From contig CAZAUE010000001.1 in NCBI GenBank assembly GCA_964488565.1, positions 42,687 through 106,686 of the forward strand: DNA of 64,000 nucleotides, written 5' to 3'. The notes below the pieces were generated by a model. The model was given only the letters and a program-made list of their open reading frames with translations, ran no database searches and was not told the DNA's origin. Origin of the DNA: an uncultured Candidatus Saccharibacteria bacterium (GTDB taxonomy: Bacteria > Patescibacteriota > Minisyncoccia > 2-02-FULL-40-12 > GWA2-44-9). The translations under genes were made by a program, and so were the position numbers. Positions 426 to 62,778 of this stretch are shown here, in pieces; position 1 is the stretch's first letter; each line of letters starts with the position of its first letter.

Positions 426-1433
426 CTAAATTCTTTCCCAATGAGAATCAATGTAGGCATTGGCTTCGGATAATTTTAAAGCCGTGGTTCCGTTTCCTGT
501 TCTTATGTAAAACTCTTCTGTATTATTGTCGTTTTTCAAATATGCAGGCTTGTGACTTGATAAAACATTCACCACACAACACTCTTTGCCATCTACATGC
601 GACCAGTTTAATTTCACGAATTGTCTAAATTCAGCTCCTATCATGTTGTGAAAAACTTGAGTAAAATGATTTTCAAAACCATCGGCATCTTTTTTGATGA
701 GGGAGCCATAATCAGAAGCCAAACCCACAATTGTTTTTTTATCGTCTACTCCTATTACCAAATGTCCACCCTGAGAATTAAGAAACGCAGCAATAGTTTT
801 CATTACTGATTTTTCAAGAACTTTATTTACTGTATTTTGTCTCATGTCCCAGCGAAAAGTGCTTTTAAATTCCAAATTCTCGTGTTCGTCTTTATTTAAA
901 AAATCTAAAACACCAGCCTTTGTGTTAATAGCTTCGGCTTCATTTTTGTTGTTAGCTGAAAATCTTTTGAATTTTAAAATTAAATCTACGTATTCTTCAG
1001 GAGTTGGGACATTTTCTAATCTAATCTTTTTATTTACATTGCTGTTTGTTAGTTCTATCGTTCCATATTTAGTAAGTTTTCCAAGAGGACTTTGACGATG
1101 ACTTACTGAAATAACATTATCAAGGGGAATCGCTGTTCTGTGACGATATAAAACACCACGAGTATGCACAATCTCACCTTTGCGGATTTGAAAAGATTCC
1201 CGATACCATCGGAAAAATATAAAAAACACAATCGCCGTTTCAGCTGAAAAGATGAGCAAGGCTTCAGCAATACGAAATGATATCGTGCGAGAAATAAACA
1301 AAGAGGTATAAATTTCTCCATAATCAGCTATCGCTCCGGCAATAAAAAAAGCGACGACTGCCATGCCCTGAAGCAAAATAAAATTTTTGACGATTACTAT
1401 GGGACTTTTTTTGACGATAATAGATTTATCCAT
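426..1433 (-). CDS. Membrane protein with an N-terminal bPH_2 (YdbS/YdbT-like bacterial PH) domain fused to a C-terminal Schlafen/AlbA_2 (divergent AAA-4) domain
   Basis: Two N-terminal TM helices flank RWYRESFQIRKGEIVHTRGVLYRHRTAIPLDNVISV (bPH_2-like). The C-terminal half has EFKSTFRWDMRQN...KTIAAFLNSQGGHLVIGVDD and FYIRTGNGTTALKLSEANAYI, typical of AlbA_2. Confidence 0.55.
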   Translation of the reverse strand: MDKSIIVKKSPIVIVKNFILLQGMAVVAFFIAGAIADYGEIYTSLFISRTISFRIAEALLIFSAETAIVFFIFFRWYRESFQIRKGEIVHTRGVLYRHRTAIPLDNVISVSHRQSPLGKLTKYGTIELTNSNVNKKIRLENVPTPEEYVDLILKFKRFSANNKNEAEAINTKAGVLDFLNKDEHENLEFKSTFRWDMRQNTVNKVLEKSVMKTIAAFLNSQGGHLVIGVDDKKTIVGLASDYGSLIKKDADGFENHFTQVFHNMIGAEFRQFVKLNWSHVDGKECCVVNVLSSHKPAYLKNDNNTEEFYIRTGNGTTALKLSEANAYIDSHWERI

Positions 1434-6006: not shown

Positions 6007-6684
6007 ATGAAAGACCCCAAATTCCCAATGCGCATAAACCAGTATCTTGCTTGGCAAAAGCACTCTACCCGCAGAGGCGGAGATGAGCTTGTCCAAAAGA
6101 AGCAGGTTCTAATCAACGGAAGATTTGCAGAACTTGGAGACAAGGTTAACGAGAAAGATATTGTGGAAGTATTAAAAAGCAAGAAGCCTACAGGCTATCT
6201 TTATTTTGCTTACAATAAGCCCGTAGGTGAAACAACAGATACTCCAATCTTTCTCAATAAAGACATATTTCCTCTTGGCCGATTAGACAAAGATTCTCAT
6301 GGTCTAATGCTCCTAACAAATGATGGAAGAGTCACCGACAGACTTCTTAACCCTGAATATGCCCATGAAAAAGAATACGTAGTTTCAACTAAAGAAAAAC
6401 TAAGAGCCAACTTCAAACAAAAAATGGAGGCGGGTGTGGACATAGAAGGATATAAGACAAAAAATTGTAAAATTGAAATCGTGAATGACTTTACTTTCAG
6501 AATAACCCTAACCGAGGGCAAGAAACATCAAATCAGAAGAATGTGTGTTGCTCTTCATAACGAAGTTCGAGATCTCAAGAGAACTAGAATAATGAATATT
6601 CGTCTAGAAAAACTACCCCCTGGTAGTCATAGATCTATCGGCGGAGAAGAACTCAAAACCTTTCTAAAAAGTTTAGGACTCTAG
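6007..6684 (+). CDS. RNA pseudouridine synthase, RsuA/RluB family (S4 domain + catalytic domain)
   Basis: S4-like N-terminus (MRINQYLAWQ...VLINGRF), the YFAYNKPVG motif, and the catalytic Asp motif in PLGRLDKDSHGLMLLTNDG. Confidence 0.8.
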   Translation: MKDPKFPMRINQYLAWQKHSTRRGGDELVQKKQVLINGRFAELGDKVNEKDIVEVLKSKKPTGYLYFAYNKPVGETTDTPIFLNKDIFPLGRLDKDSHGLMLLTNDGRVTDRLLNPEYAHEKEYVVSTKEKLRANFKQKMEAGVDIEGYKTKNCKIEIVNDFTFRITLTEGKKHQIRRMCVALHNEVRDLKRTRIMNIRLEKLPPGSHRSIGGEELKTFLKSLGL

Positions 6685-6688
6685 TTGC

Positions 6689-7921
6689 CTATTCGTAACG
6701 CAAAGCCTCGATGGGGCTCTTCATAGATGCTCGACGAGCTGGATATATACCAAAAATAAATCCTATTACAGTAGAGACTCCTACGCCCAACAATGCACCC
6801 GACCAAGGTGAAGAAAAAGGGAAATTCAGTCCGGCAAATTTATTAATTAAAATAGTTCCTGCATAACTTATTAATGAGCCTGAAATAATTCCGATAATAC
6901 CTCCGCTTGCTGTTAAAATTATCGCCTCAACCAAAAACTGGAAAAGAATATCCTTGTTTTTAGCACCCAAAGCTTTTCTGAGTCCTATTTCTCTTGTTCT
7001 CTCAGTTACAGAAACAAGCATTATATTCATTATTCCCACCCCTCCGACAACCAAAGAAATTCCAGCTATTGAAGCAAGGAGAATGGTAAGCATATCGGTT
7101 ATTTGAGTAAAAGTTTTAGCAGCCCCCTCTGGTGTTTGTACATAAAAATCAGCAGTTTGGCCCTCTTCCAGACCATGACTATCTCTTATTGTATTCCTCA
7201 CACTTTCAACCATGTCTGATAAAAGAGAAGAATCTGCGGTTCTGATAATTATTCTTTGAATGTAATCATACCCCAAAATATACTGCTGAGCCGTTGTGTA
7301 AGGAGTTATGACAACTTTGTCGTAATCCAAAAACAAAGACTGTCCCTTAGGCTCAAGAACCCCGATAACACGGTATGACCTGTCTTTTATTTTAACTTTC
7401 TCACCAACAGCATCCGACTCTCCAAAAAGTTCTTCCTTAACTTTTGAACCCAGAACAACAACAGCTGATTTTTGATCCACATCCTCATCATTAATAAATT
7501 CCCCATCTGAAAGTTCTAATTTATCTATAGTCTGATTGCCAGGAGAAGCACCCAAAAGAGATCCATAGAATTCTTCGGACTCAAAAAACACATTTGCTGG
7601 TCCAAAAACAAAAGGCACAATTAAATCAGCTTCTGGGACATTGATCTTGTTGCGAAGAGCAATAACATCTTTATCGTGCAAAGAATCAGTAAGCACACTG
7701 CCCTCACTAAAATCTCCTTCTTTCCCTGGTATTACAAAAATATTATTAGAACCAAAACTTTCAAGCTCTCCAAGAATAAACCCCTGAGCACTTCCACCGA
7801 GGGAGGTAACTATTGTAATAGCGGCGATACCAATAACTATCCCGAGAACAGTAAGCATTGTTCTTGCTTTATGTGTCGTAAGCCCCGATATCGCCATTTT
7901 TAGAATATCTTTAAAATCCAT
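6689..7921 (-). CDS. ABC transporter permease, MacB/FtsX-like
   Basis: N-terminal TM, a large periplasmic domain, and a C-terminal FtsX-type 3-TM bundle. Arranged as an operon with the upstream ATPase and adaptor. Confidence 0.8.
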   Translation of the reverse strand: MDFKDILKMAISGLTTHKARTMLTVLGIVIGIAAITIVTSLGGSAQGFILGELESFGSNNIFVIPGKEGDFSEGSVLTDSLHDKDVIALRNKINVPEADLIVPFVFGPANVFFESEEFYGSLLGASPGNQTIDKLELSDGEFINDEDVDQKSAVVVLGSKVKEELFGESDAVGEKVKIKDRSYRVIGVLEPKGQSLFLDYDKVVITPYTTAQQYILGYDYIQRIIIRTADSSLLSDMVESVRNTIRDSHGLEEGQTADFYVQTPEGAAKTFTQITDMLTILLASIAGISLVVGGVGIMNIMLVSVTERTREIGLRKALGAKNKDILFQFLVEAIILTASGGIIGIISGSLISYAGTILINKFAGLNFPFSSPWSGALLGVGVSTVIGFIFGIYPARRASMKSPIEALRYE

Positions 7922-7924
7922 AAT

Positions 7925-8644
7925 TTATTTCATGAGACCTGAACCAACCAATCTCCTGTTGGTTACAAGCTGATCCAACTCAATTTTTCCATCTTTTACC
8001 CTTATCATTCTTTTAGCAGATTGGGCCACATAGGTTTCATGGGTAACAATAATGATTGTGTGGCCTTGATCATTCAGTTTTTGTAAAAAATCTAATACCA
8101 CTTCACCTGATTTTGAATCCAAGTTGCCAGTTGGCTCATCGGCAAAAATAACTTTAGGGTTATTCACAAGAGCACGAGCAATGGCAACCCTTTGTTTTTG
8201 CCCTCCCGAAAGTTTTGAAGTTTTATAATCGGCTCGATCCTGAAGACCCACTAACTCAACCAAACCAGAAGCAATTCTTGTTCTTTCTGGTTCTCTTATG
8301 CCAGCATAAACGAGAGGCAATTTAATATTTTCTAAAACCGAAATACGAGGAAGAAGGTTAAATGCTTGGAACACAAAACCCATTTTATTATTCCTAAGGT
8401 AAGCAAGCTCATCATCGCTATAGTTGTCCAACAACTTACCCTCAATCAAATACTGACCCGATGTTGGTCTATCTAGACAGCCAAGAATCTGAAGGAGCGT
8501 TGACTTGCCCGATCCTGAAGGACCAACAATCGCAACAAATTCTCCTTCTTCAATACTAATACTGATATCATCAAGACCGACAGTTTCTATTTCATTGTCG
8601 TGATATATCTTAGTTAAATTTTTTATTTCAATAAGAGAGGGCAT
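7925..8644 (-). CDS. ABC transporter ATP-binding protein (MacB/LolD-type)
   Basis: Walker [13 protein letters not shown] signature [15 protein letters not shown], and Walker [11 protein letters not shown]. Confidence 0.9.
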
Positions 8645-8651
8645 CTTTAAA

Positions 8652-10355
8652 TTATTTCACCGAGGATTTATTGACAACGTTATCTCCAATTTTCAAACCA
8701 GACAGTATTTCTGTTTTGCCATCAGAACCTCTTAACCCTGTTTCCACAGGAACCTCAACCACCTTTCCTTCTTTAGTGGATGCCACAACCGCAAGGTTTG
8801 CTAAGTTATATGAAGCATCTTTTTGGGAAACATAAATTCTCACAAATTTCTTTCCATCTTTAGTTATAATATCTCGACTTGAAACGTAGACAACATCATC
8901 CTTTTTATTGGTTTGAATTTCAGCATCGGCAGTGAGACCTGAAAGTAGTTTGGGATTATTTTCATCAAATTCCAAGGTTACCTTGTAGGTTGCAACACTA
9001 TTCATGACTTGTCCTGCTGGATCAATGTGAACAACTTTAGCCTTTAACTTGTAATCTTTTCCATAAGCATCTAATGTCACTGTCGCATTATTTCCAATTT
9101 TAATTTTAGCAATATCGGCCTCTGATATGTTTGTTTCAATTTGAAACTTAGCATCTCCAACAATAGAAGCGACGGGGCTTTGTGGGGAAACAAGCTGACC
9201 AACTTTTACATCTATATTAACCACCATTCCATTAAACGGTGCCCGAATTGAATATTTGGCCAAATTATCAAGAGCATCTCTTACGGCAGATTCGCTCTGC
9301 CTTACAATGTTTTCCTGACTGGCAATATCAAGAGGATTGCTCTGTTGTTCTGTATCCAATAATCTTTGCGAACTTGCCAATGCTTGCTTATTAGAGGTTA
9401 TGGAGTTTTGAATGTTTGTAAGACTCGTTAAATGAGAGTTTAGTTGGTTTATATATCTTACGACCTCAGATTGATATGATGCTATTGGGGATGGTATTGG
9501 TGCAGAAGAATTATTATCTCGTAAATTATCTACGGTGGTATCAAGCACTATCTGCTCATCTCTTGCTACTTGAGACATTTTTTTGACTGTTTCTAGTGTC
9601 TCATTTATAAGTGCTATTAAAGCTTCTGGAGATGATGATCTTGTTGTGTTGTTATAATGCTCAAGATTAACTTCGTAAGACTTATCGGCAACATTATATT
9701 CATCAACCGTTTTTTTCAACAAAAAATCCATGACTTCTTTATCATTGCCAAGTGCTAAGTTTAAATAACCATTAACATTAGAATTGCCTGATTCTATTTT
9801 ATTATTATCGAGAAGCACACCTTTTATGCCTGAAATGGTGGCTGGCAAATCAAGAAAAGAATCGGAAACTTCATTAAACCCATTTTGATAAGCTGTATCA
9901 AGATTGTTTTGAGCAGTAATTATTGTATCCAGAATCTTGGGAATATCGTTTTGATTATTCAATCGGAGTTTGCTCAAAGCTATTTTTGCATTCTCAAGAT
10001 TAAGCTGAGCATCCCTAAGCGTTTTTTGAGCATCGCTGGCATTGAGTTGAGCAATCAGAGCACCAGAATTTACTTTCTGACCATTTATAAAAGCCACGTA
10101 TGACACCTTACCACCTTTTTCAAAAGAAAGATCAACAAACTGAGAGGAGACAACTCTGCCCGACACACTTACCTCCTGAATCACCGAACCTCTTTCAATC
10201 GCCTTTGCTTTATAAACCTCTTTCTCTGTGCGTCCAAAAGAAAACCACCCCAAAAGAAGAATGGCGATGGCAATAGTAATTGAGGTTTTTTTATAAGTTT
10301 TTAGAAATCTCCAAGATTTAATTATTAAGTTTTTCATTTTATTTATCATAGTCAC
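8652..10355 (-). CDS. Periplasmic adaptor / membrane-fusion protein (HlyD/MacA family) with a long coiled coil
   Basis: N-terminal TM, a long heptad-rich central region, and a C-terminal beta-barrel-like segment. It is first in the operon with the ABC ATPase and permease. Confidence 0.7.
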   Translation of the reverse strand: MTMINKMKNLIIKSWRFLKTYKKTSITIAIAILLLGWFSFGRTEKEVYKAKAIERGSVIQEVSVSGRVVSSQFVDLSFEKGGKVSYVAFINGQKVNSGALIAQLNASDAQKTLRDAQLNLENAKIALSKLRLNNQNDIPKILDTIITAQNNLDTAYQNGFNEVSDSFLDLPATISGIKGVLLDNNKIESGNSNVNGYLNLALGNDKEVMDFLLKKTVDEYNVADKSYEVNLEHYNNTTRSSSPEALIALINETLETVKKMSQVARDEQIVLDTTVDNLRDNNSSAPIPSPIASYQSEVVRYINQLNSHLTSLTNIQNSITSNKQALASSQRLLDTEQQSNPLDIASQENIVRQSESAVRDALDNLAKYSIRAPFNGMVVNIDVKVGQLVSPQSPVASIVGDAKFQIETNISEADIAKIKIGNNATVTLDAYGKDYKLKAKVVHIDPAGQVMNSVATYKVTLEFDENNPKLLSGLTADAEIQTNKKDDVVYVSSRDIITKDGKKFVRIYVSQKDASYNLANLAVVASTKEGKVVEVPVETGLRGSDGKTEILSGLKIGDNVVNKSSVK

Positions 10356-20917: not shown

Positions 20918-21011
20918 AACAGTGGCAGGCGTTAGTCACTTTATTAATACCCCAATTTTAACACAAAAAAACAGGCAAAAAATGTGCCTGTGGACAAATT
21001 GAAAGTAAAAA

Positions 21012-21045
21012 AAGAGGAGGCGCCATAGCGCCTCCTTGATGGTTC
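21012..21045 (-). terminator. Intrinsic terminator of GC-rich cassette A
   Basis: Perfect 8-bp stem GGAGGCGC-CAUA-GCGCCUCC, followed on the minus strand by CUCUUUUUUUAC. Confidence 0.6.
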
Positions 21046-21056
21046 GGGGTCGGTTC

Positions 21057-21605
21057 TTAGAAATTGAACCTGACTCCGGCGACCCCGCGACCATCGCCGA
21101 TGGCATAGGTTCCCCAGAGGGCAACCTTACCAACCGACACTTGGACGTAGGGACCGGTTCCGATGAACCGCTGGCTGTTCACGCCGACGGCGACGGTCTT
21201 GGTCATCTGGAACGTTCCCAGATAGCGATACCAATAACCGCTTCCGCCGTGTTCGTGGAGGGAAAGGAGCGACCATCGCCCCGAGCCGAGCCACACGCTA
21301 CCGCCACCACGAAGCGGGTTGTCGGCAGTCTCCAGTCCAAGACTAGCAGACACCTCCACCCACTCGGCGGGAGCGTACGTGAGGCCGGCGTAGCCCTCAC
21401 TCCACTCCTCAGATGTCAGCGTCCAAGCCGACCATCCAAGTTTGCCCTTGAGTGGGCCGTGGACGTAGACGTTGAGCTGAGGCGTAACACCTTCCTCGCT
21501 CACCGTGTTGAACGACTCAACGTACCCAGAGGCCTGCTGAGCCTGAGCAGTCACGACCGTGAGGGTCATGATGATCGTCACGAGAACGAGTTTTGTCAGC
21601 TTCAC
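21057..21605 (-). CDS. GC-rich (~60%+) ORF encoding a signal-peptide-bearing outer-membrane beta-barrel-like protein (GTG start). Foreign or anomalous cassette A.
   Basis: Signal peptide MKLTKLVLVTIIMTLTVVTAQA. Alternating aromatic/Gly beta-strand pattern and a C-terminal ...GVRFNF ending in Phe, as in Gram-negative OMPs. A SD sequence AAGGAGAGAG lies 6 nt upstream, with its own promoter and terminator. Confidence 0.55.
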   Translation of the reverse strand: MKLTKLVLVTIIMTLTVVTAQAQQASGYVESFNTVSEEGVTPQLNVYVHGPLKGKLGWSAWTLTSEEWSEGYAGLTYAPAEWVEVSASLGLETADNPLRGGGSVWLGSGRWSLLSLHEHGGSGYWYRYLGTFQMTKTVAVGVNSQRFIGTGPYVQVSVGKVALWGTYAIGDGRGVAGVRFNF

Positions 21606-21663
21606 TGTCTCTCTCCTTGCCCCTGAATGGGGCGGTTTTCAAACATCTAACCTTAATACCTAT

Positions 21664-21692
21664 ATTATAACAGATTTTAGTGAAAATTGCAA
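21664..21692 (-). promoter_or_regulatory. Sigma70-like promoter for cassette A (TTGCAA-N17-TATAAT)
   Basis: On the minus strand: TTGCAAttttcactaaaatctgtTATAAT, ~55 nt upstream of the GTG start. Confidence 0.45.
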
Positions 21693-31712: not shown

Positions 31713-34088
31713 TTATAAACCTGCGCCAATTCCATATTTTTGGCGCGAAGCTTCTTTAAGTTGCAATACTAATTCTGGATTTGATGCGGGTGGTGGATCA
31801 ATTTTAATATTAAACGGTCTTGCTGTTTGATTATTAATCAACAACTTGGCATAGCAATTGAAGTTATCAATGTTCAAAAGATCTTGCGGACTAAATACTG
31901 GTTCAAATTGATTTTTTAGGAATTCAGCATCATCAGCACCAACTCTGAATACGGCCATTGAGCCAACATTGCCAAATACGGCATCGCGAATCTTATCAAC
32001 CAATTGTTTTATAAATTGATTAGCGATGATTAGATTTAATCTATATTTACGTGCTTCAGCTAAAATCGTTGAGATACTGTCAGTGGTAAAGTTATGGAAC
32101 TCATCAACATATAGATAGAAGTCTGCTCGCTGTTCCTCCGGAGTGTTTACACGAGACAAAGCAGCAATCAAGATTTTACCGACAATAATCATGCCCAACA
32201 AACTAGCATTAATGTCCCCAATTCTCCCTTTAGATAAATTAACCAATAAAATCTTTCTCTGATCCATCAATTCTCGGAAATTGAATGCGCTTTTCTTCTG
32301 AGAAAGAATCGGCCTCAAAAATTCATTGGCAATGAAACCGTTAATCTTGGAAGTAATATAAGGGGCCATATTGGCCAAGGCCGCTTCGCCTCCGGCTTTC
32401 TCAGCTTCCAATTCCCAAAAGTTTTTAACGATCGGGTTTGTTTCTCTGGATAATTTATCGCGCCTGTAAGCATCGTCGGTCAAAACACGAGGAATATTTA
32501 CCAGAGTCGGAACTTCATTTGCGTAATCGTCCATCAAAAGAAGCATCGCGTTTCTGAAGTATTGATCAAACATGGGACCCATTGTTTCCGCTAAAAACAA
32601 CTTCTGGAAAATACTTAATATCTCATTCACTATAAATGTTTTTTGTTCTGGGAAATTGGGATCAAATTCAAGCATGTTTAAACCCAAAGGTTTTGCCATA
32701 TCAGCAGGATCAAAAATTATGACATCATCCATTCTCTCAGGAGGTATGAATCCCAAAATTCTTTCAATGGCAGTACCGTGAGGATCAACAAAAGCCACCC
32801 CGTCACCATTCAAAATGTCTTGATAAATCATGTTCTCCATCAAGGTTGATTTACCAGTTCCAGTTTGTCCCAATAGATAAAAATGTCTTCTTCTATCACT
32901 CTTAGTCATTCTTATCGGGCTCTCTACTCCCCTGAAAATGTTTTTACCCAAGATAATTCCTTCTTGCGGTAAGTTGGATGGCGGTTCAGAAGGTTTTGAT
33001 TTCAAAAACTTTATTCTAGGTGAAAGTGTTGTTCCTAACGGAAAATGAAACAGACTAGTCACTTCTTCGCTGGATAATAATGCTGTTTGGGAATTATCAA
33101 AAAGACGGAAAGAGTAATTAAACAAAAGTTTTTCAAGAGAACCTCCTGTAAGTTTTGAAAGTTGAAAACTATTCATTTCATTAGACGAGAACTGGACAAA
33201 GGCTCCTGATAGTTCATTAAGCAATTGACCCGCCCGAGCTTCATTATCAGCAGAGACAATAATTCTTATGTTTGTATCAAACAAAGGTTTTGAGGCCTTA
33301 TCTTGAATTCCCTTAACTACTTCCGCCTCAAAAGGTGTTATGGCTTTAGGTCGTTCCAGTTCTTGTTCTCCAGTTTTAGATTTTTTAGGAGAATTTTTAG
33401 CTAAAGATAATGCTTTGGAAAAATTAAATCCTGACTGCATTTCTTTGGCAGTCTTCTGAGCTAATTTTCTCAAACCATCTTGATGGGTGGGCCTGATAAG
33501 TATCTGAATCGCCGCACCCTCACCTTCCTTTTGAAGCTTGGAAAATGCTGTTGCTAATCCCCCAAGAGGATCTGCCTGAAGCATTTGATATGTTTTAAAT
33601 GGAAGAATTGGATTATTTTTTAGTCTGAAAATTCCCGCCAAAGAAACCCCCTGCGGATTAAAAATATTGTAATCTTTTATTCTCTCAACTTGAGCGGTCG
33701 GGAAAAAACTATTTACCTGTTTTTCAAAAATTTGCTCATAGCTTCTGGGCACTGCCATGTAAAAGTGTATTTCTTCTCCGATATGGTGAACTCCAATTTC
33801 TAATGAAAGATATGGTTCACCATATAAAAACTTGTTCCATCCTTTGGCATGAAGATTCGTAAATGAAGAATAAAGCTGTTCCATTACCGAAATAATGTCT
33901 TTTTCGGATTGTTGGGGTTGTCCAGAACCAGTCTGAGAGCTCTCTCTTGGAACACTAATCAAAAACAGGGACATGTTCAAAGCTCTAGCAATACTGCCCT
34001 TGGTTCTAAATGATCCAACTAAAACTAAACCGGCAATAAATATTATTGCCAAAACTACAAGATAGATTATCAGAAGAAATAGTGACAA
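31713..34088 (-). CDS. Membrane-anchored P-loop ATPase of the type IV secretion coupling-protein (VirD4/TraD/TraG) / FtsK-HerA superfamily
   Basis: N-terminal TM helix; Walker A HFYLLGQTGTGKST; Walker B YLYVDEFHNF; arginine-finger-like ARKYRLNLIIANQ. 791 aa. Confidence 0.6.
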   Translation of the reverse strand: MSLFLLIIYLVVLAIIFIAGLVLVGSFRTKGSIARALNMSLFLISVPRESSQTGSGQPQQSEKDIISVMEQLYSSFTNLHAKGWNKFLYGEPYLSLEIGVHHIGEEIHFYMAVPRSYEQIFEKQVNSFFPTAQVERIKDYNIFNPQGVSLAGIFRLKNNPILPFKTYQMLQADPLGGLATAFSKLQKEGEGAAIQILIRPTHQDGLRKLAQKTAKEMQSGFNFSKALSLAKNSPKKSKTGEQELERPKAITPFEAEVVKGIQDKASKPLFDTNIRIIVSADNEARAGQLLNELSGAFVQFSSNEMNSFQLSKLTGGSLEKLLFNYSFRLFDNSQTALLSSEEVTSLFHFPLGTTLSPRIKFLKSKPSEPPSNLPQEGIILGKNIFRGVESPIRMTKSDRRRHFYLLGQTGTGKSTLMENMIYQDILNGDGVAFVDPHGTAIERILGFIPPERMDDVIIFDPADMAKPLGLNMLEFDPNFPEQKTFIVNEILSIFQKLFLAETMGPMFDQYFRNAMLLLMDDYANEVPTLVNIPRVLTDDAYRRDKLSRETNPIVKNFWELEAEKAGGEAALANMAPYITSKINGFIANEFLRPILSQKKSAFNFRELMDQRKILLVNLSKGRIGDINASLLGMIIVGKILIAALSRVNTPEEQRADFYLYVDEFHNFTTDSISTILAEARKYRLNLIIANQFIKQLVDKIRDAVFGNVGSMAVFRVGADDAEFLKNQFEPVFSPQDLLNIDNFNCYAKLLINNQTARPFNIKIDPPPASNPELVLQLKEASRQKYGIGAGL

Positions 34089-34609: not shown

Positions 34610-35029
34610 CTACTTTCTCGGCGTGACGGTCGGAACCACACTCTGTTCCGACTTCACGCTGAGGTGGTACTGCCACACCACGTAGGTGTAGCCGGGGTAG
34701 GTCACGTCTTCCACCACGCGGGTGGGGACGGTGGCGACGACCTTCCGAACCGTGCTCGGAGGCAGGCTGTCGACCTCTTCGATCAACGGCATGCCTCGGT
34801 CGTCACGAACCGGGACCACCACGGACGTCCGCGGAAGCGAGCGGTCCGCGAAGTCGAACACGCGAGCGTCGCCTCCGCCCTTGATCGTGGCCTTGTAGGT
34901 GAACGCCAAGGCGTACACCTTGTTGGTCTCGATGCCGTCGCCCCGCCCGAAATTGGCAAAGGCGATAATGGACACGACGGCCACGACAAAGATGGTGGCG
35001 ATGAAAACGAGAACGCGGGTCCGATTCAT
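34610..35029 (-). CDS. GC-rich (~65%) ORF encoding a 139-aa N-terminally membrane-anchored hypothetical protein (cassette B)
   Basis: SD AAGAGG 7 nt upstream; N-terminal TM (VLVFIATIFVVAVVSIIAF). Composition (R/V/T/P-rich) and codon GC are unlike host genes. Confidence 0.5.
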   Translation of the reverse strand: MNRTRVLVFIATIFVVAVVSIIAFANFGRGDGIETNKVYALAFTYKATIKGGGDARVFDFADRSLPRTSVVVPVRDDRGMPLIEEVDSLPPSTVRKVVATVPTRVVEDVTYPGYTYVVWQYHLSVKSEQSVVPTVTPRK

Positions 35030-38087: not shown

Positions 38088-38600
38088 AAGCGCCCCGCCA
38101 GATTTCTCCAGCGGGGCGGTCGTGCCGTCTTCTTCCGTGCCTGTTGCGCGTCTGTGCGGTATCTTTGTCGATGGCTTACAGAGGCCTCGGCTCTGGGCCA
38201 TAGGAGCGCCACTTGCATGTGCCTCCTAAACGCGGGTTGCAGATTGCCTGTGTGGTTGGTTCCGGTGCCAGCTTACAGGACCTTCTTTCCTGTGCTGGGT
38301 GCCGTATCGCGACGACGTACTCTCATGTTCCCCCTTCTGAGGAGGGTGGTGGAAGGGGCGCGCACCGCCCCTTCCAAGTGGTTGTGAATCCCTCGCCGTT
38401 TAGCGGCGGGAGACCGGGTTATCCACCATTCCCCGTGGGTTAACAGAACGTAGGTGCGAAGACTCGTCCGCCACCGTCCCGTTCTGTGCACAGTCCAGCG
38501 TGGCGATAGGTTCACAAGAGGCTTATCGCGAGATTGCTCTCGGACCTCCTTGTCCCTTGTCGCCACGCCGGACCGTCTTGTTGGCTCTCTAACTTAGAGC
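38088..38600. other. ~500-nt GC-rich (~62%) non-coding block with dense hairpin potential. Possible structured RNA or foreign DNA; identity unresolved.
   Basis: Only overlapping composition-driven ORFs on both strands, none protein-like. Perfect hairpins include CGCCCCGC...GCGGGGCG (38091-38118) and GGAAGGGGCG-CGCA-CGCCCCUUCC (38352-38375). A long-range ACAGAACG...CGUUCUGU pairing is possible. Confidence 0.35.
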
Positions 38601-38831
38601 CCGAAAAAAACCAGCAAATTACGACTACCGAACTACCTTAGAGCGACTATGGATGTCCTTACCCCTATTCCTTCAGGCCAATTATTATTACTTGAATGCC
38701 TGGATATTGAGATATTTACGAGGTGTTTGCTGGCTTTTTTCGAGCCCTTTTTAGGAGCCCGATATGTAAAGAACTTAGTGTTTTTAAAGTATAGCAGATA
38801 GCCATAACAATGTCAAGTACTAAGATTTAAT

Positions 38832-38875: not shown

Positions 38876-39226
38876 TTACTCGTCTTCGTCGACGACGTCG
38901 TCTTGGACCTGGAAATCGGTCCTTGAATCGACGATGTCTTCGAGGGGGACGAATGGCTCGTTCAAAGCCCACTCGTCGCGGGTCTCGACGACACGTCGCA
39001 CGTGACCCCAATAGCTCTCGCTGACGATTGCCTTGGACTTGAAGGTCTTGCCGATGCGCCGAGTGCGGAGGCGATCATTGCGAACAATCCGCGCCTCCTC
39101 GTCAACGACTTCGGGCGTGAACGTCGCCGTTGCGAAACAACCGGACTGACTGCGGTTCTCAGGAACGAACGTCCCTTCGAATTCGCGCGTCATCTCGGCT
39201 GCCATCCTCTGGGCTCGTGAACTCAT
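38876..39226 (-). CDS. GC-rich (~62%) ORF encoding a 116-aa acidic hypothetical protein (cassette C)
   Basis: SD GGGGGT upstream; the start overlaps a 1-codon minimal ORF (ATGTAATGA). Acidic C-terminus (QVQDDVVDEDE). Confidence 0.45.
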   Translation of the reverse strand: MSSRAQRMAAEMTREFEGTFVPENRSQSGCFATATFTPEVVDEEARIVRNDRLRTRRIGKTFKSKAIVSESYWGHVRRVVETRDEWALNEPFVPLEDIVDSRTDFQVQDDVVDEDE

Positions 39227-43080: not shown

Positions 43081-43530
43081 ATGAAGATTCAGGCCAGCCT
43101 CGTCTCGATGTCGAAGAACCAGAAGCGCGCCATGGTCACCGTGACCACGGGCGAGGGCGCCCACCGCCGGTCCACCACCCGCCACATCGGCTTCACGGAT
43201 GGTGCATGGTTCGGTCACAACCCCGACGAGCGAGCAGTTCCGCTCAACCGGCGCTACACCGCCGAGCTCCTCGCCGCCAAAGGCGACCTCGCCGGCGAGC
43301 AGGCGACGCTCACCCAGCTCGAGGAAGAACTCCTCAAGCTGGAAACGACCGAGCCGACGACGGAAATGGACACGGCCATGATCGCCGGCTACAAGGCCGA
43401 GCTGGCCGAGGCCATCAGCGAGGCCAAGGCCCTGGTCAACTTCGCCGAGGCATCCGTCGCCGAAGCCGAGCTCAAGCTCCACATCGTCGAGAAGGAAGTG
43501 CCGCTCGAAGTCGAGTTCGGCATCTTCTAG
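43081..43530 (+). CDS. GC-rich (~64%) ORF encoding a 149-aa hypothetical protein with a C-terminal coiled-coil/alanine-rich helix (cassette D)
   Basis: Strong SD GAAGGAG 9 nt upstream of ATG. Protein MKIQASLVSMSKNQKRAMVTVTTGEGAHRR...AELAEAISEAKALVNFAEASVAEAELK. Composition unlike the host. Confidence 0.5.
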   Translation: MKIQASLVSMSKNQKRAMVTVTTGEGAHRRSTTRHIGFTDGAWFGHNPDERAVPLNRRYTAELLAAKGDLAGEQATLTQLEEELLKLETTEPTTEMDTAMIAGYKAELAEAISEAKALVNFAEASVAEAELKLHIVEKEVPLEVEFGIF

Positions 43531-58517: not shown

Positions 58518-59168
58518 CTATACCAATAGCCAAGCGATAGTGGCGACCACCCAACTAAGTTCATTGGCCATCTCACTTATTGCAAGCCAAATGCGGTTGC
58601 GGTCCCAACCCGCCTCCCTAACCATGAAGTAAATCTGGCCAAGGCGAATCAGAATCGTAAGGTGCCCCACTACTACCGACAAGCCAGGCGTACCAGAAGC
58701 ACCTTCGGCCAGAAACTTCCAGGCCAGAAGCACTTGAGGTACCGACTTGTAAGCTATAGCGAAAGACGCTTTCGCTATAGGATCGCTCAATGATAAACGG
58801 CGAATAGTGCTTATGAAAATCACCACCGCCGTCAGGACGACTCCTGTTGCAAGTGTTGTTGTGTCCTTATCATTCCATTGATACGCCGGATTCGTTCCGG
58901 CCGCGACCAAAACACAAGAACCAAGAACAAACCAAACAACATAAGTCGCAATGGCTTGTCGAGTGACGCGACTAGGAGCGGTGCGATGAGCACCAATACC
59001 CAATGCCAAGTGAAACACCAGGTATGCAGTAGCCAGACCAAACTGAGCTAAGCTGAATCCTGTCACATCTGTTACCAACCGCAGAACATACGCTCCGCAA
59101 AATATAACCGCACCGATGATCTGGACCCAAAAGAGCAGGTCCGCAACCATCCTTTTCTTTCCTGACAT
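58518..59168 (-). CDS. Moderately GC-rich (~50%) ORF encoding a 216-aa polytopic membrane protein, hypothetical (cassette F)
   Basis: SD AAAGGAGG 5 nt upstream; ~6 TM helices. Its GC is clearly above that of neighbouring genes. Confidence 0.5.
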   Translation of the reverse strand: MSGKKRMVADLLFWVQIIGAVIFCGAYVLRLVTDVTGFSLAQFGLATAYLVFHLALGIGAHRTAPSRVTRQAIATYVVWFVLGSCVLVAAGTNPAYQWNDKDTTTLATGVVLTAVVIFISTIRRLSLSDPIAKASFAIAYKSVPQVLLAWKFLAEGASGTPGLSVVVGHLTILIRLGQIYFMVREAGWDRNRIWLAISEMANELSWVVATIAWLLV

Positions 59169-61124: not shown

Positions 61125-61373
61125 CTAGTCGTTGACGGCGTCGACGGCGACAGCGCCCGCCCAAGTCGCTTCTCCAGCGATCTTGCGCAAAACAGCCATC
61201 AAGCCGTACTTCTGCGCATAGGCCTTCGCGGCCACCGAATCGCCACGCTTCAGGATACGACGAAGCTTGCGCTCCGACGTCCTGGCGAAAGCCGGCGCAA
61301 ATTTTCCGTTCCGGCGTCCGGCCGAACCGGGCTTGCCCTTCTTGCCTTCCTGACCCTTCTTCTCGGTCCCCAT
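61125..61373 (-). CDS. GC-rich ORF encoding an 82-aa basic protein (cassette E, gene 1)
   Basis: SD AGGAGGG 6 nt before the ATG (MGTEKKGQEGKKGKPGSAGRRNGKF...). It begins 19 nt after the stop of the upstream host membrane-protein gene. Confidence 0.45.
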   Translation of the reverse strand: MGTEKKGQEGKKGKPGSAGRRNGKFAPAFARTSERKLRRILKRGDSVAAKAYAQKYGLMAVLRKIAGEATWAGAVAVDAVND

Positions 61374-61392
61374 CTGACCCTCCTCATGAATA

Positions 61393-62778
61393 CTAACGTT
61401 GTCCCAAGATTGTATCACTAAATTTTAGTGATGTCAACCCAAAGCTCAACAAAGACAGCGTGAGCCAAAAGATGAATCTTCCCTGCTGAAGTGTCCACAA
61501 GAAGTGGTCAAATAAACCAAAGAATAGAAAAGATAGAACTATGAGCAAAAAAGAATAATGGTATAACTTACTCATTTTTGTTCTCAAGATGAAATCCTTA
61601 ATAAGGAGAAGCAGAAAAATGGCAAACACAGTGATGCCCAATATTCCATTCTCTGAGTAAATCAGGAGATAAATATTGTGTACTGGCTGATAAAGATTAC
61701 GCGATAAATTTTGATCTTTAGTCATTAGCCAATCAACAAAATTACCGGAACCAACTCCAAACCAGTTCAAGGACTTTAATGATTCTTTGTTGTAAAAAAT
61801 TCTCAGTTGAACAGCCTCCTCCCCAGAAGATATCTTTACCCGACTAATCGCTTCGGGCCAATAAAACACCGAGAAACCAGAAGTAACAATGAGTGTTGTT
61901 ATAAATATTAGAGCTAATTTTTTATTCCAATACTCTTTCCCGAACTTTAAGCGCACGAGGATAATTCTTATCAAAAAATTAATAAACAGAATAAATATTG
62001 CTACTCGTGCAAAGGTAAAAAAGAAGGCTAAAAGAGTTAATCCGAACACGAACAGGTAAAATTTGCTTATATTCTTGTAGATCCATAGATAATAAAAAGC
62101 AAAAATTGCCAAAAATAAATACGCGGCCAGAATATTCGGATGGGGCGTGGTGCCATAAGCACGAATAATCTTTTCTCCTGCCATGTTGTAAAAAGATGCG
62201 ATACCAGACATGTTGAGCCCAATAACACTTTCCCCGAGTAACCTGAGACCCAAATCCGATTGTTTAAAAAATTGAAGCACTGCGATTATTGCCTGAAATA
62301 ATCCCCCAGCAATAATAACCATCAGTGAATTGCCAAAACCAAATCTCGTCACAGCATAATTCTTAATATAAAGATAAAATAAAATAAATTCCAAAAGTTT
62401 TATCCAATTATAGAAGGCAAGTTGAGGACTAATAGCGTTTCTGATTGAAACCGCCGAGATAATAATGAATAAGGCCAGAAAAAAATCTGGTTTTTGGATT
62501 AGGTGTTTGGTGTTAGATATTGAGGGTTTAAAAAAATTAGCATAATACTTGATATTGAATATTTGATACGTCTTCGGAGAATTCCCAAGCCAAAACAAAA
62601 ACAAGATCAAAAGCAGTAGGTCTGTTGCGTACAAAGACGCCGACTGCCATTCATTAAAATTCCAGCTCTGATGCCACAAAATTTTCCGTACCTGAAACGG
62701 AATAGCAAATAACAGAAAATAAAATAAAAATTGTTCTGACCTATTTAACAAATAGTGCATAGACAATACCCGCCCCAA
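61393..62778 (-). CDS. Polytopic membrane protein, O-antigen ligase/Wzy-like
   Basis: 461 aa with at least 10 TM helices and a large loop. The family assignment is tentative. Confidence 0.4.
   Translation of the reverse strand: MGRVLSMHYLLNRSEQFLFYFLLFAIPFQVRKILWHQSWNFNEWQSASLYATDLLLLILFLFWLGNSPKTYQIFNIKYYANFFKPSISNTKHLIQKPDFFLALFIIISAVSIRNAISPQLAFYNWIKLLEFILFYLYIKNYAVTRFGFGNSLMVIIAGGLFQAIIAVLQFFKQSDLGLRLLGESVIGLNMSGIASFYNMAGEKIIRAYGTTPHPNILAAYLFLAIFAFYYLWIYKNISKFYLFVFGLTLLAFFFTFARVAIFILFINFLIRIILVRLKFGKEYWNKKLALIFITTLIVTSGFSVFYWPEAISRVKISSGEEAVQLRIFYNKESLKSLNWFGVGSGNFVDWLMTKDQNLSRNLYQPVHNIYLLIYSENGILGITVFAIFLLLLIKDFILRTKMSKLYHYSFLLIVLSFLFFGLFDHFLWTLQQGRFIFWLTLSLLSFGLTSLKFSDTILGQR

Follow-up and report, generated by a model that had tools for sequence, protein, structure and literature searches.

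A predicted twelve-stranded barrel of outer-membrane type, encoded by a single-gene cassette and belonging to a family resident in Candidate Phyla Radiation chromosomes

Introduction

The porins of the KdgM/NanC type (PF06178; PDB 4pr7/4fqe, 2wjr, 8xua) are monomeric, antiparallel, 12-stranded beta-barrels of about 20 kDa that sit in the outer membrane of diderms and conduct acidic oligosaccharides. Twelve strands also build the translocators of autotransporters and of the intimin/invasin group (BrkA, Hbp, NalP, AIDA-I, intimin), which have 240–300 residues and a passenger or linker running through the lumen, whereas the outer-membrane proteins (OMPs) OmpW, OmpX and PagL have eight strands; a de novo designed 12-stranded transmembrane barrel (PDB 9fdg) is artificial and evolutionarily unrelated to the protein described here. 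In this report we analyse a 64-kb stretch of DNA (contig CAZAUE010000001.1; hereafter, the window) from a chromosome of the Candidate Phyla Radiation (CPR, or Patescibacteria), whose cassette A, a single-gene unit on the minus strand, encodes a predicted barrel that shares the monomeric 12-stranded architecture and size of KdgM and NanC. It differs from them in having much shorter loops, and from the autotransporter and intimin translocators in being a barrel alone; above all, its hosts belong to a group that is thought to have no outer membrane.

That CPR lack an outer membrane, as an earlier note on this DNA took for granted, agrees with the literature: CPR are without TonB-ExbBD and PilQ, and their appearance under the microscope suggests that they have no envelope of the Gram-negative kind (PMC6744442); Patescibacteria are counted among the monoderms (PMC12857230); and Minisyncoccus archaeiphilus, a cultured species of the class Paceibacteria, is described as Gram-positive (PMC12281837). 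An account of outer membranes states that ‘Chloroflexi and CPR lost theirs’ (PMC10160955). Most CPR are uncultured (and so marked in PMC10160955), and their envelope ultrastructure is inferred (PMC8871954). We found no report of OMP-type barrels in CPR in the literature. The fold and its targeting signals are known; what is new is that they occur in a family that has no annotation and is known mainly from a phylum thought to be without the membrane for which such proteins are built.

Results

A conserved gene for an exported barrel

The open reading frame (ORF) of cassette A is a real, conserved gene, since it has 38 homologues at E ≤ 0.01 (identities 35–99%) and since pairwise ratios of nonsynonymous to synonymous divergence (dN/dS) in its frame are 0.14–0.26 for the pairs in which dS is unsaturated. 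A 196-aa ORF on the opposite strand (21036-21626, plus) was rejected as the kind of shadow ORF that GC-rich DNA commonly produces. The product, of 182 residues, begins with MKLTKLVLVTIIMTLTVVTAQA and ends with GVRFNF.

AlphaFold2, supplied with a 34-sequence alignment, models the product (pLDDT 91.2, pTM 0.78) as a closed barrel of twelve antiparallel strands joined by connections of 2–6 residues, with an N-terminal helix (residues 2–18, in the signal peptide) set apart from the barrel. For a family member at 28% identity the model has this topology too (pLDDT 92.9), with the top structural matches unchanged. Foldseek ranks KdgM (4fqe/4pr7) first, and the other 12-stranded outer-membrane barrels matched in the structure comparison are intimin, autotransporter beta-domains, the COG4313 channel, FapF, PcoB, NanC (13.7) and LpxR; by comparison, OmpW and NspA score only 7.7–7.8 and the best soluble barrels no higher than 8.4. 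At the level of sequence, the relation to KdgM/NanC is undetectable (6–13% identity in structural alignments): the window protein matches no Pfam family at E ≤ 10, no NCBIfam model and no PDB chain by sequence or by profile, and 109 relatives likewise have no match in Pfam, in NCBIfam or, by sequence, in the PDB, and none to KdgM at E ≤ 0.1.

Averaged over 109 family members, hydropathy on one face of the twelve strands exceeds that on the other by 2.4 Kyte-Doolittle units, and in most strands a hydrophobic face alternates with a polar, glycine-rich face that, from this pattern, would point inward and that bears the invariant or near-invariant residues E30, E92, R99, E118 and W125. The C-terminus, G177-V-R-F-N-F182, has the form of an OMP beta-signal and follows a family consensus of G(-6), Phi(-5), R/K(-4), F/L/Y(-3), N/S/K(-2) and F(-1), the terminal residue being aromatic in 126 of 178 members. 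A rule-based check recognised a signal-like N-terminus in 153 of these 178 and a lipobox in only three; AQAQQ is the family consensus at the predicted cleavage site, where the window protein reads MKLTKLVLVTIIMTLTVVTAQA followed by QQ. A catalytic OMP resembling OMPLA, LpxR or PagL was considered and set aside, the conserved motif E-x-G-G-S-G-x-W coming without a conserved histidine.

The model, the alternation of faces, the beta-signal, the signal peptide and the scarcity of lipoboxes make it very probable that the product is an exported, non-lipidated, transmembrane barrel of outer-membrane type with 12 strands. A signal peptide, a beta-signal and an even number of amphipathic antiparallel strands are also what characterises OMPs that depend on the beta-barrel assembly machinery (BAM). 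The earlier note had read a Sec signal peptide, alternating strands and a C-terminal aromatic residue from this sequence, and all three are borne out, as is the outer-membrane barrel class to which it assigned the product. The subtype it proposed is not: the window protein shares its Sec signal, amphipathic strands and aromatic terminus with OmpW, OmpX and PagL, but it is a 12-stranded barrel with the architecture of KdgM/NanC rather than an eight-stranded one.

A family at home in CPR chromosomes

Close homologues that carry an organism assignment all belong to Paceibacterota, Liptonbacteria, Zambryskibacteria or ‘Patescibacteria group bacterium’. With a profile, 736 clusters (50% identity) were retrieved at E ≤ 1e-3 out of 1.84 billion cluster representatives; 529 of them reach E ≤ 1e-10, and nearly all matched clusters are 175–195 residues long. 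We read the DNA context at 14 distinct places, 11 of which are CPR or CPR-like chromosomal sites, all different. They include the DoxX/ATPase neighbourhood of the window, a hydrolase/Obg neighbourhood (L001 and L007; L numbers are our locus handles), a TspO/FtsK/RecA neighbourhood (L003 and L010), and further sites in L006 (Zambryskibacteria), L011, L012, L014, L015 (the 697-kb contig Ga0376277_0000059, MFA6198112.1) and L016. Zambryskibacteria MHVH01 is among the carriers of the family. The gene lies within long CPR contigs, of up to 733 kb (L001; ERZ23486227 scaffold_1), with CPR-type genes on both sides, and neither the window nor any other locus holds a paralogue of this single-copy gene.

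With close organism-assigned homologues that all come from Paceibacteria, the gene is no isolated import out of a Gram-negative bacterium, and the family is resident in CPR. The earlier note had regarded the gene as functionally out of place in a CPR genome and had looked to the best matches for a donor lineage. The nearest relatives lend no support to a Gram-negative donor. In composition the gene is foreign to the window genome, yet CPR as a whole are its home, and the relatives of diderm type are remote. Two of them, P0318 and P0038, are 35–42% identical to the window protein and occur in contigs of 64–65% GC. The gene for P0318, on a 1.9-Mb contig, is about 1–5 kb from kdsB, kdsA, kdsD and lapB, which marks its carrier as a maker of lipopolysaccharide; this gene also adjoins a DDE transposase. 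The annotation gives P0318 (L017, 9881-10459) 152 aa and no signal peptide, but its start is probably miscalled, because the ORF continues upstream and there encodes a signal peptide (...LTFVAIVCGGLFSGSTASAQ, directly ahead of TFV).

In a neighbour-joining tree, which is distance-based and drawn from a sample skewed toward the CPR-built profile, members with a CPR context are scattered throughout and the GC-rich sequences of diderm type form one small clade. GARP/FYMINK amino-acid composition failed to separate CPR from diderm members.

Transfer, amelioration and selection

The GC content of the ORF is 60%, as against 39% for the whole window, and its GC content at third codon positions (GC3) is 0.71, while 34 host genes average 0.324 ± 0.038 (z about 10). 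When gene and remaining locus are compared across copies, the difference runs from 60% versus 39% in the window, 63% versus 41% in L010 and 61% versus 41% in L003, through 60% versus 49% (L006), 62% versus 53% (L015), 60% versus 52% (L011), 56% versus 44% (L007), 51% versus 40% (L001) and 50% versus 46% (L012), to 42% versus 41% in both L014 and L016. This looks like an amelioration series, and the window copy is one of those that have changed least.

Two syntenic pairs bear on the age of the gene in its present surroundings. In L003 and L010, the flanking genes have diverged to dS values of 0.77 (FtsK), 0.76 (RecA) and 1.48 (TspO), and the barrel gene (dS 0.37; GC3 0.74 and 0.81) has kept the same position; in L001 and L007, dS is about 1.0 and GC3 is 0.61 and 0.64. 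Between the window copy and those of L003, L010 and L006, DNA homology spans only the distance from start codon to stop codon. The promoters, leaders and terminators of these four copies are unrelated, and a shared mobile backbone was therefore rejected; conserved ends and att-like sites did not turn up either.

It is likely that the window copy was acquired by horizontal transfer. Taken as a record of the gene's history, these patterns indicate a source whose GC content was higher than that of all the present hosts, followed by long residence with vertical inheritance in some lineages and slow amelioration, by relocation between CPR genomes and by continued purifying selection. From all of this it would follow that the gene is used by CPR cells and is no dead import.

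Searches of IMG/VR, of the INPHARED phages and of the PLSDB plasmids returned no relatives of cassette A. A 20-nt direct repeat flanking the cassette (20944-20963 and 21653-21672) was rejected as a target-site duplication, since 21 of 500 shuffles score as well; it probably reflects two similar -10 regions. In L010 (5889-6444; a metagenome-assembled genome of Paceibacterota), the barrel gene is frameshifted, its N-terminal 70 codons lying in another frame, and this copy is either a pseudogene or the product of a sequencing error.

A self-contained transcription unit

As a transcription unit, cassette A is self-contained and has a single gene (Table 1). The GTG start, Shine-Dalgarno (SD) sequence, promoter and perfect terminator that the earlier note had read here are all present where it placed them, and the promoter and terminator scans agree with its view that the unit looks ready for expression. 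In the 1.1 kb scanned there were three promoter-like sites, compared with 0.9 ± 0.9 in shuffles. The promoter region is AT-rich, as is the host and unlike the GC-rich ORF. Folding of the leader RNA gives -13.2 kcal/mol (z = -1.9), which is weak taken alone. The terminator stem, with seven GC pairs out of nine, is located within the GC-rich island, whose limits match those of leader hairpin, ORF and terminator together; the second hairpin, just beyond it, is probably an older terminator that belonged to the intergenic region into which cassette A was received. The cassette lies among genes for DoxX, a 256-aa hypothetical protein (upstream) and P-type ATPases, and its DNA, including both flanking genes, recurs in identical form on a JGI metagenome contig (L008, the same as L019).

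Table 1. Features of cassette A and positions of the other GC-rich units in the 64-kb window
Feature	Position	Strand	Basis or remark
Promoter, sigma70-type: TTGCAA (-35), N17, TG-extended TATAAT (-10)	21664..21692	-	Consensus scan, 10/12 matches
5' untranslated leader, 58 nt	21606..21663	-	Contains GC hairpin, then SD
Leader hairpin, 5-bp GC (GCCCC-AUUCA-GGGGC)	21619-21633	-	Upstream of SD
SD sequence AAGGAG	21613-21618	-	7 nt ahead of GTG; direct reading of sequence
Barrel coding sequence, GTG start, 182 codons + TAA	21057..21605	-	ORF list, homologues, dN/dS
Sec-type signal peptide, residues 1-22, predicted cut between AQA and QQ, lipobox cysteine absent	21540..21605	-	Sequence reading
Mature protein, 160 residues, predicted 12-stranded barrel, C-terminal G-V-R-F-N-F	21060..21539	-	
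Intrinsic terminator, perfect 9-bp stem AGGAGGCGC/GCGCCTCCT, 4-nt loop, T-run	21036..21015	-	Terminator scan; also delimited as 21006..21036
Second terminator-like hairpin, AT-richer, just downstream of the first	20971..20991	-	Terminator scan
GC-rich island, 55-66% GC	about 21010..21640	.	100-nt composition profile
Unit B	34610-35029	-	
Unit C	38876-39226	-	
Unit D	43081-43530	+	
Unit E	58518-59168	-	
Unit F	61125-61418	-	

In its layout, cassette A resembles the morons of phages, which likewise have a sigma70-type promoter of their own, a single ORF, an intrinsic terminator and a deviating GC content, and are inserted between unrelated genes. The cassette differs from them in that it is not in a prophage, its flanks being chromosomal CPR genes (DoxX, P-type ATPases), and in that the ORF alone, and neither promoter nor terminator, is homologous between copies.

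Other GC-rich units of the window

Five further units, B to F, are also single-ORF and GC-rich, with a GC3 of 0.49 in E and of 0.69–0.88 in the others, as against 0.32 in host genes. Units B to E are laid out like A, each with a TTGACA-type promoter, an ORF and its own terminator, and units A to D have a GC hairpin in the leader just ahead of the SD sequence. Pfam domains are absent from all of B to F, and IMG/VR contains no relatives of B, C or D. An integron array was considered for these units and rejected, because cassette A has its own promoter and a Rho-independent terminator in place of attC, the GC-rich units are spread over 40 kb, each between core genes, and there is no integrase among the window proteins scanned. 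Together, units A to F suggest that this CPR chromosome acquires foreign genes singly, as moron-like transcription units.

Directly upstream of unit B, at 31713-34088 (minus), is a gene for a 791-aa protein with matches to TrwB/VirD4-type coupling proteins, HerA and TraG-D_C; type IV secretion systems of CPR are reported to be essential for the epibiotic lifestyle (PMC12857230). At 38125-38610 (minus), a stretch of about 56% GC has no convincing ORF, and its RNA folds at -203.6 kcal/mol (z = -5.5 versus shuffles). A promoter-like TTGACA-N17-TATACT at about 38812-38784 (minus) is paired with it. It matches no Rfam family at the gathering threshold or at E ≤ 1, bar one match at chance level, and might be a structured RNA of a new kind or what is left of a cassette after decay. 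A related CPR contig of 44% GC (L020, whose homologue of the 256-aa protein is 54% identical) has a short GC-rich island, of up to 65% GC, at about 6600-8100, from which the cassette phenomenon may be common in the lineage of the window.

The host chromosome

The lysyl-tRNA synthetase of the window is 79–91% identical to metagenome proteins, and its best organism-assigned matches are to Candidatus Yanofskybacteria (79%). Other genes encode PBP2, MreBC, MurG, FtsQ, PMT-type glycosyltransferases, a Wzy_C protein, P-type ATPases and a VirD4/TrwB-like ATPase. By these matches and this gene content the window comes from a Yanofskybacteria-like chromosome of the CPR class Paceibacteria, in line with the CPR origin that the earlier note had supposed. 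No Omp85/BamA, LptD, TolC or secretin domain occurs in the 44 scanned proteins of the window, nor do the precomputed Pfam columns give one for the neighbours at CPR-type loci.

A MacB-type ABC permease (MacB_PCD + FtsX), an ABC ATPase and a 567-aa HlyD-family adaptor are encoded in a row at 6689-10355 (minus); in diderms such a set is coupled to TolC, and an outer-membrane partner is not visible in the window. At 426-1433 (minus), a bacterial PH domain and a Schlafen AlbA_2 domain are joined in one protein, a possible defence-related gene in a reduced genome.

Discussion

The account that we favour, with modest confidence, is that cassette A is a transferred unit of a CPR-resident family, that its barrel is exported, and that it acts as a small channel, most likely in the envelope of a host cell. 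Under this account, the cassette would have reached a Yanofskybacteria-like chromosome by horizontal transfer, and its constitutive-looking sigma70 promoter would drive the single barrel gene. The Sec system would export the product, with cleavage after AQA, and the mature chain of 160 residues would close into a minimal 12-stranded barrel, hydrophobic on the outside and with a polar lumen containing the invariant E92, R99 and E118. Such a barrel would need a bilayer beyond the cytoplasmic membrane; and because CPR are regarded as having neither outer membrane nor BAM, it would have to insert without BAM, either spontaneously or with the help of the host, most plausibly into the envelope of the host cell where the two are in contact. 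In that position it might serve the episymbiotic lifestyle as a small passive channel for solutes. Considered on its own, a channel function directed at a host is doubtful.

Several points weigh against this account. The destination membrane and the channel function are purely inferential, and we know of no precedent for the BAM-free insertion of a monomeric 12-stranded barrel into the envelope of another cell. The inspected DNA amounts to 64 kb here and at most 20 kb per homologue, and BAM or another insertase may be encoded elsewhere. No empty site was found for a before/after comparison (in metagenomes, the upstream 256-aa gene has relatives that reach 54% identity at most and lack synteny), so insertion is deduced from composition and variable context. 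As to the distribution of the family, the profile was built from CPR sequences, which skews the best-scoring relatives to CPR; those of the 736 clusters that are more distant may come mainly from diderms; L011, L012, L014 and L016 are called CPR-like from gene content only; and the context of L029 was left without assignment.

Alternatively, these Paceibacteria may not be strictly monoderm. They might have an unrecognised outer lipid layer, or an insertase that is divergent or undetected by homology, which would make the protein an ordinary small porin of their own envelope, possibly a relic from the diderm ancestry of Terrabacteria. Such an explanation would account for an old family, found widely in CPR and kept there by purifying selection, with a Sec signal and a canonical beta-signal conserved throughout; it could draw as well on the MacB-type pump and HlyD-family adaptor, the O-antigen-ligase-like proteins and the PMT-type glycosyltransferases of the window. 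However, MacB/HlyD pairs occur in monoderms too, and neither the window nor the lists for neighbours at CPR-type loci contain a domain for outer-membrane biogenesis. The envelopes of these mostly uncultured organisms have been inferred (PMC8871954, PMC10160955), which leaves some room for such a layer, but the lack of TonB-ExbBD and PilQ, the microscopy (PMC6744442), the treatment of Patescibacteria as monoderms (PMC12857230) and the Gram-positive isolate of this class (PMC12281837) all speak against it, and we consider it improbable.

A little less probable still is that the barrel is secreted and remains soluble or associated with the wall, where it would bind a ligand or protein, its likeness to porins being merely geometric. 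The lack of sequence similarity to any named OMP family and loops that are unusually short for an OMP would be expected on this basis. The strands tell against it, in that most of them set a hydrophobic face against a polar, glycine-rich face with invariant E and R, as does the C-terminal G-x-x-aromatic-x-F, which is typical of membrane OMPs. Moreover, by barrel geometry, the lumen of a 12-stranded barrel is too wide for a hydrophobic core.

That the exported barrel inserts from outside into the cytoplasmic membrane of the CPR cell itself, or into shed vesicles, as a channel for uptake or leakage, seems to us quite improbable. For a Sec-exported protein of a monoderm this membrane is the nearest bilayer, and CPR have few recognisable transporters; however, an open 12-stranded pore would dissipate the ion gradients of an energised membrane, and we know of no comparable beta-barrel channel in a bacterial cytoplasmic membrane. 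Finally, it is scarcely credible that the gene is a functionless passenger or an artefact of assembly or binning, i.e., a GC-rich Gram-negative gene recently acquired or mis-assembled: a GC3 lying 10 SD above host genes, remote relatives in GC-rich contigs (one near kdsA/kdsB/lapB) and the frameshift in L010 could be so explained, but the same junctions appear in separate assembly records (L003/L004/L005, L001/L002, L012/L013 and window/L008), the gene is placed inside long CPR contigs between CPR genes, its dN/dS is low, the locus has been kept while flanking genes reached dS values of 0.76–1.5, copies at native GC exist, and the searches for relatives in phages, plasmids and IMG/VR came back empty.

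Membrane proteins of the beta-barrel type count as a mark of two-membrane cells and their organelles, and CPR serve as the monoderm reference in studies of outer-membrane gain and loss. A bolder reading, which we think less likely than not, is that Patescibacteria keep and exchange a large family of genuine transmembrane OMP-type barrels, whether as effectors in the host envelope (an inter-cellular porin or nutrient conduit) or in an unrecognised outer layer with BAM-independent assembly. A conserved, selected and mobile family of this type in CPR would be a leftover from diderm ancestry, a sign that the CPR envelope has been misjudged, or a tool for tapping hosts, and these three options are now directly testable, with isolates of the class Paceibacteria and genetically tractable Saccharibacteria in existence. 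The family also offers a natural example of a minimal 12-stranded barrel of 160 residues, and the GC-rich single-gene units suggest that CPR chromosomes gain foreign genes one by one, as ready-made transcription units. If it were true that the barrel is inserted into a host, it would represent a new kind of inter-cellular porin at the episymbiotic contact.

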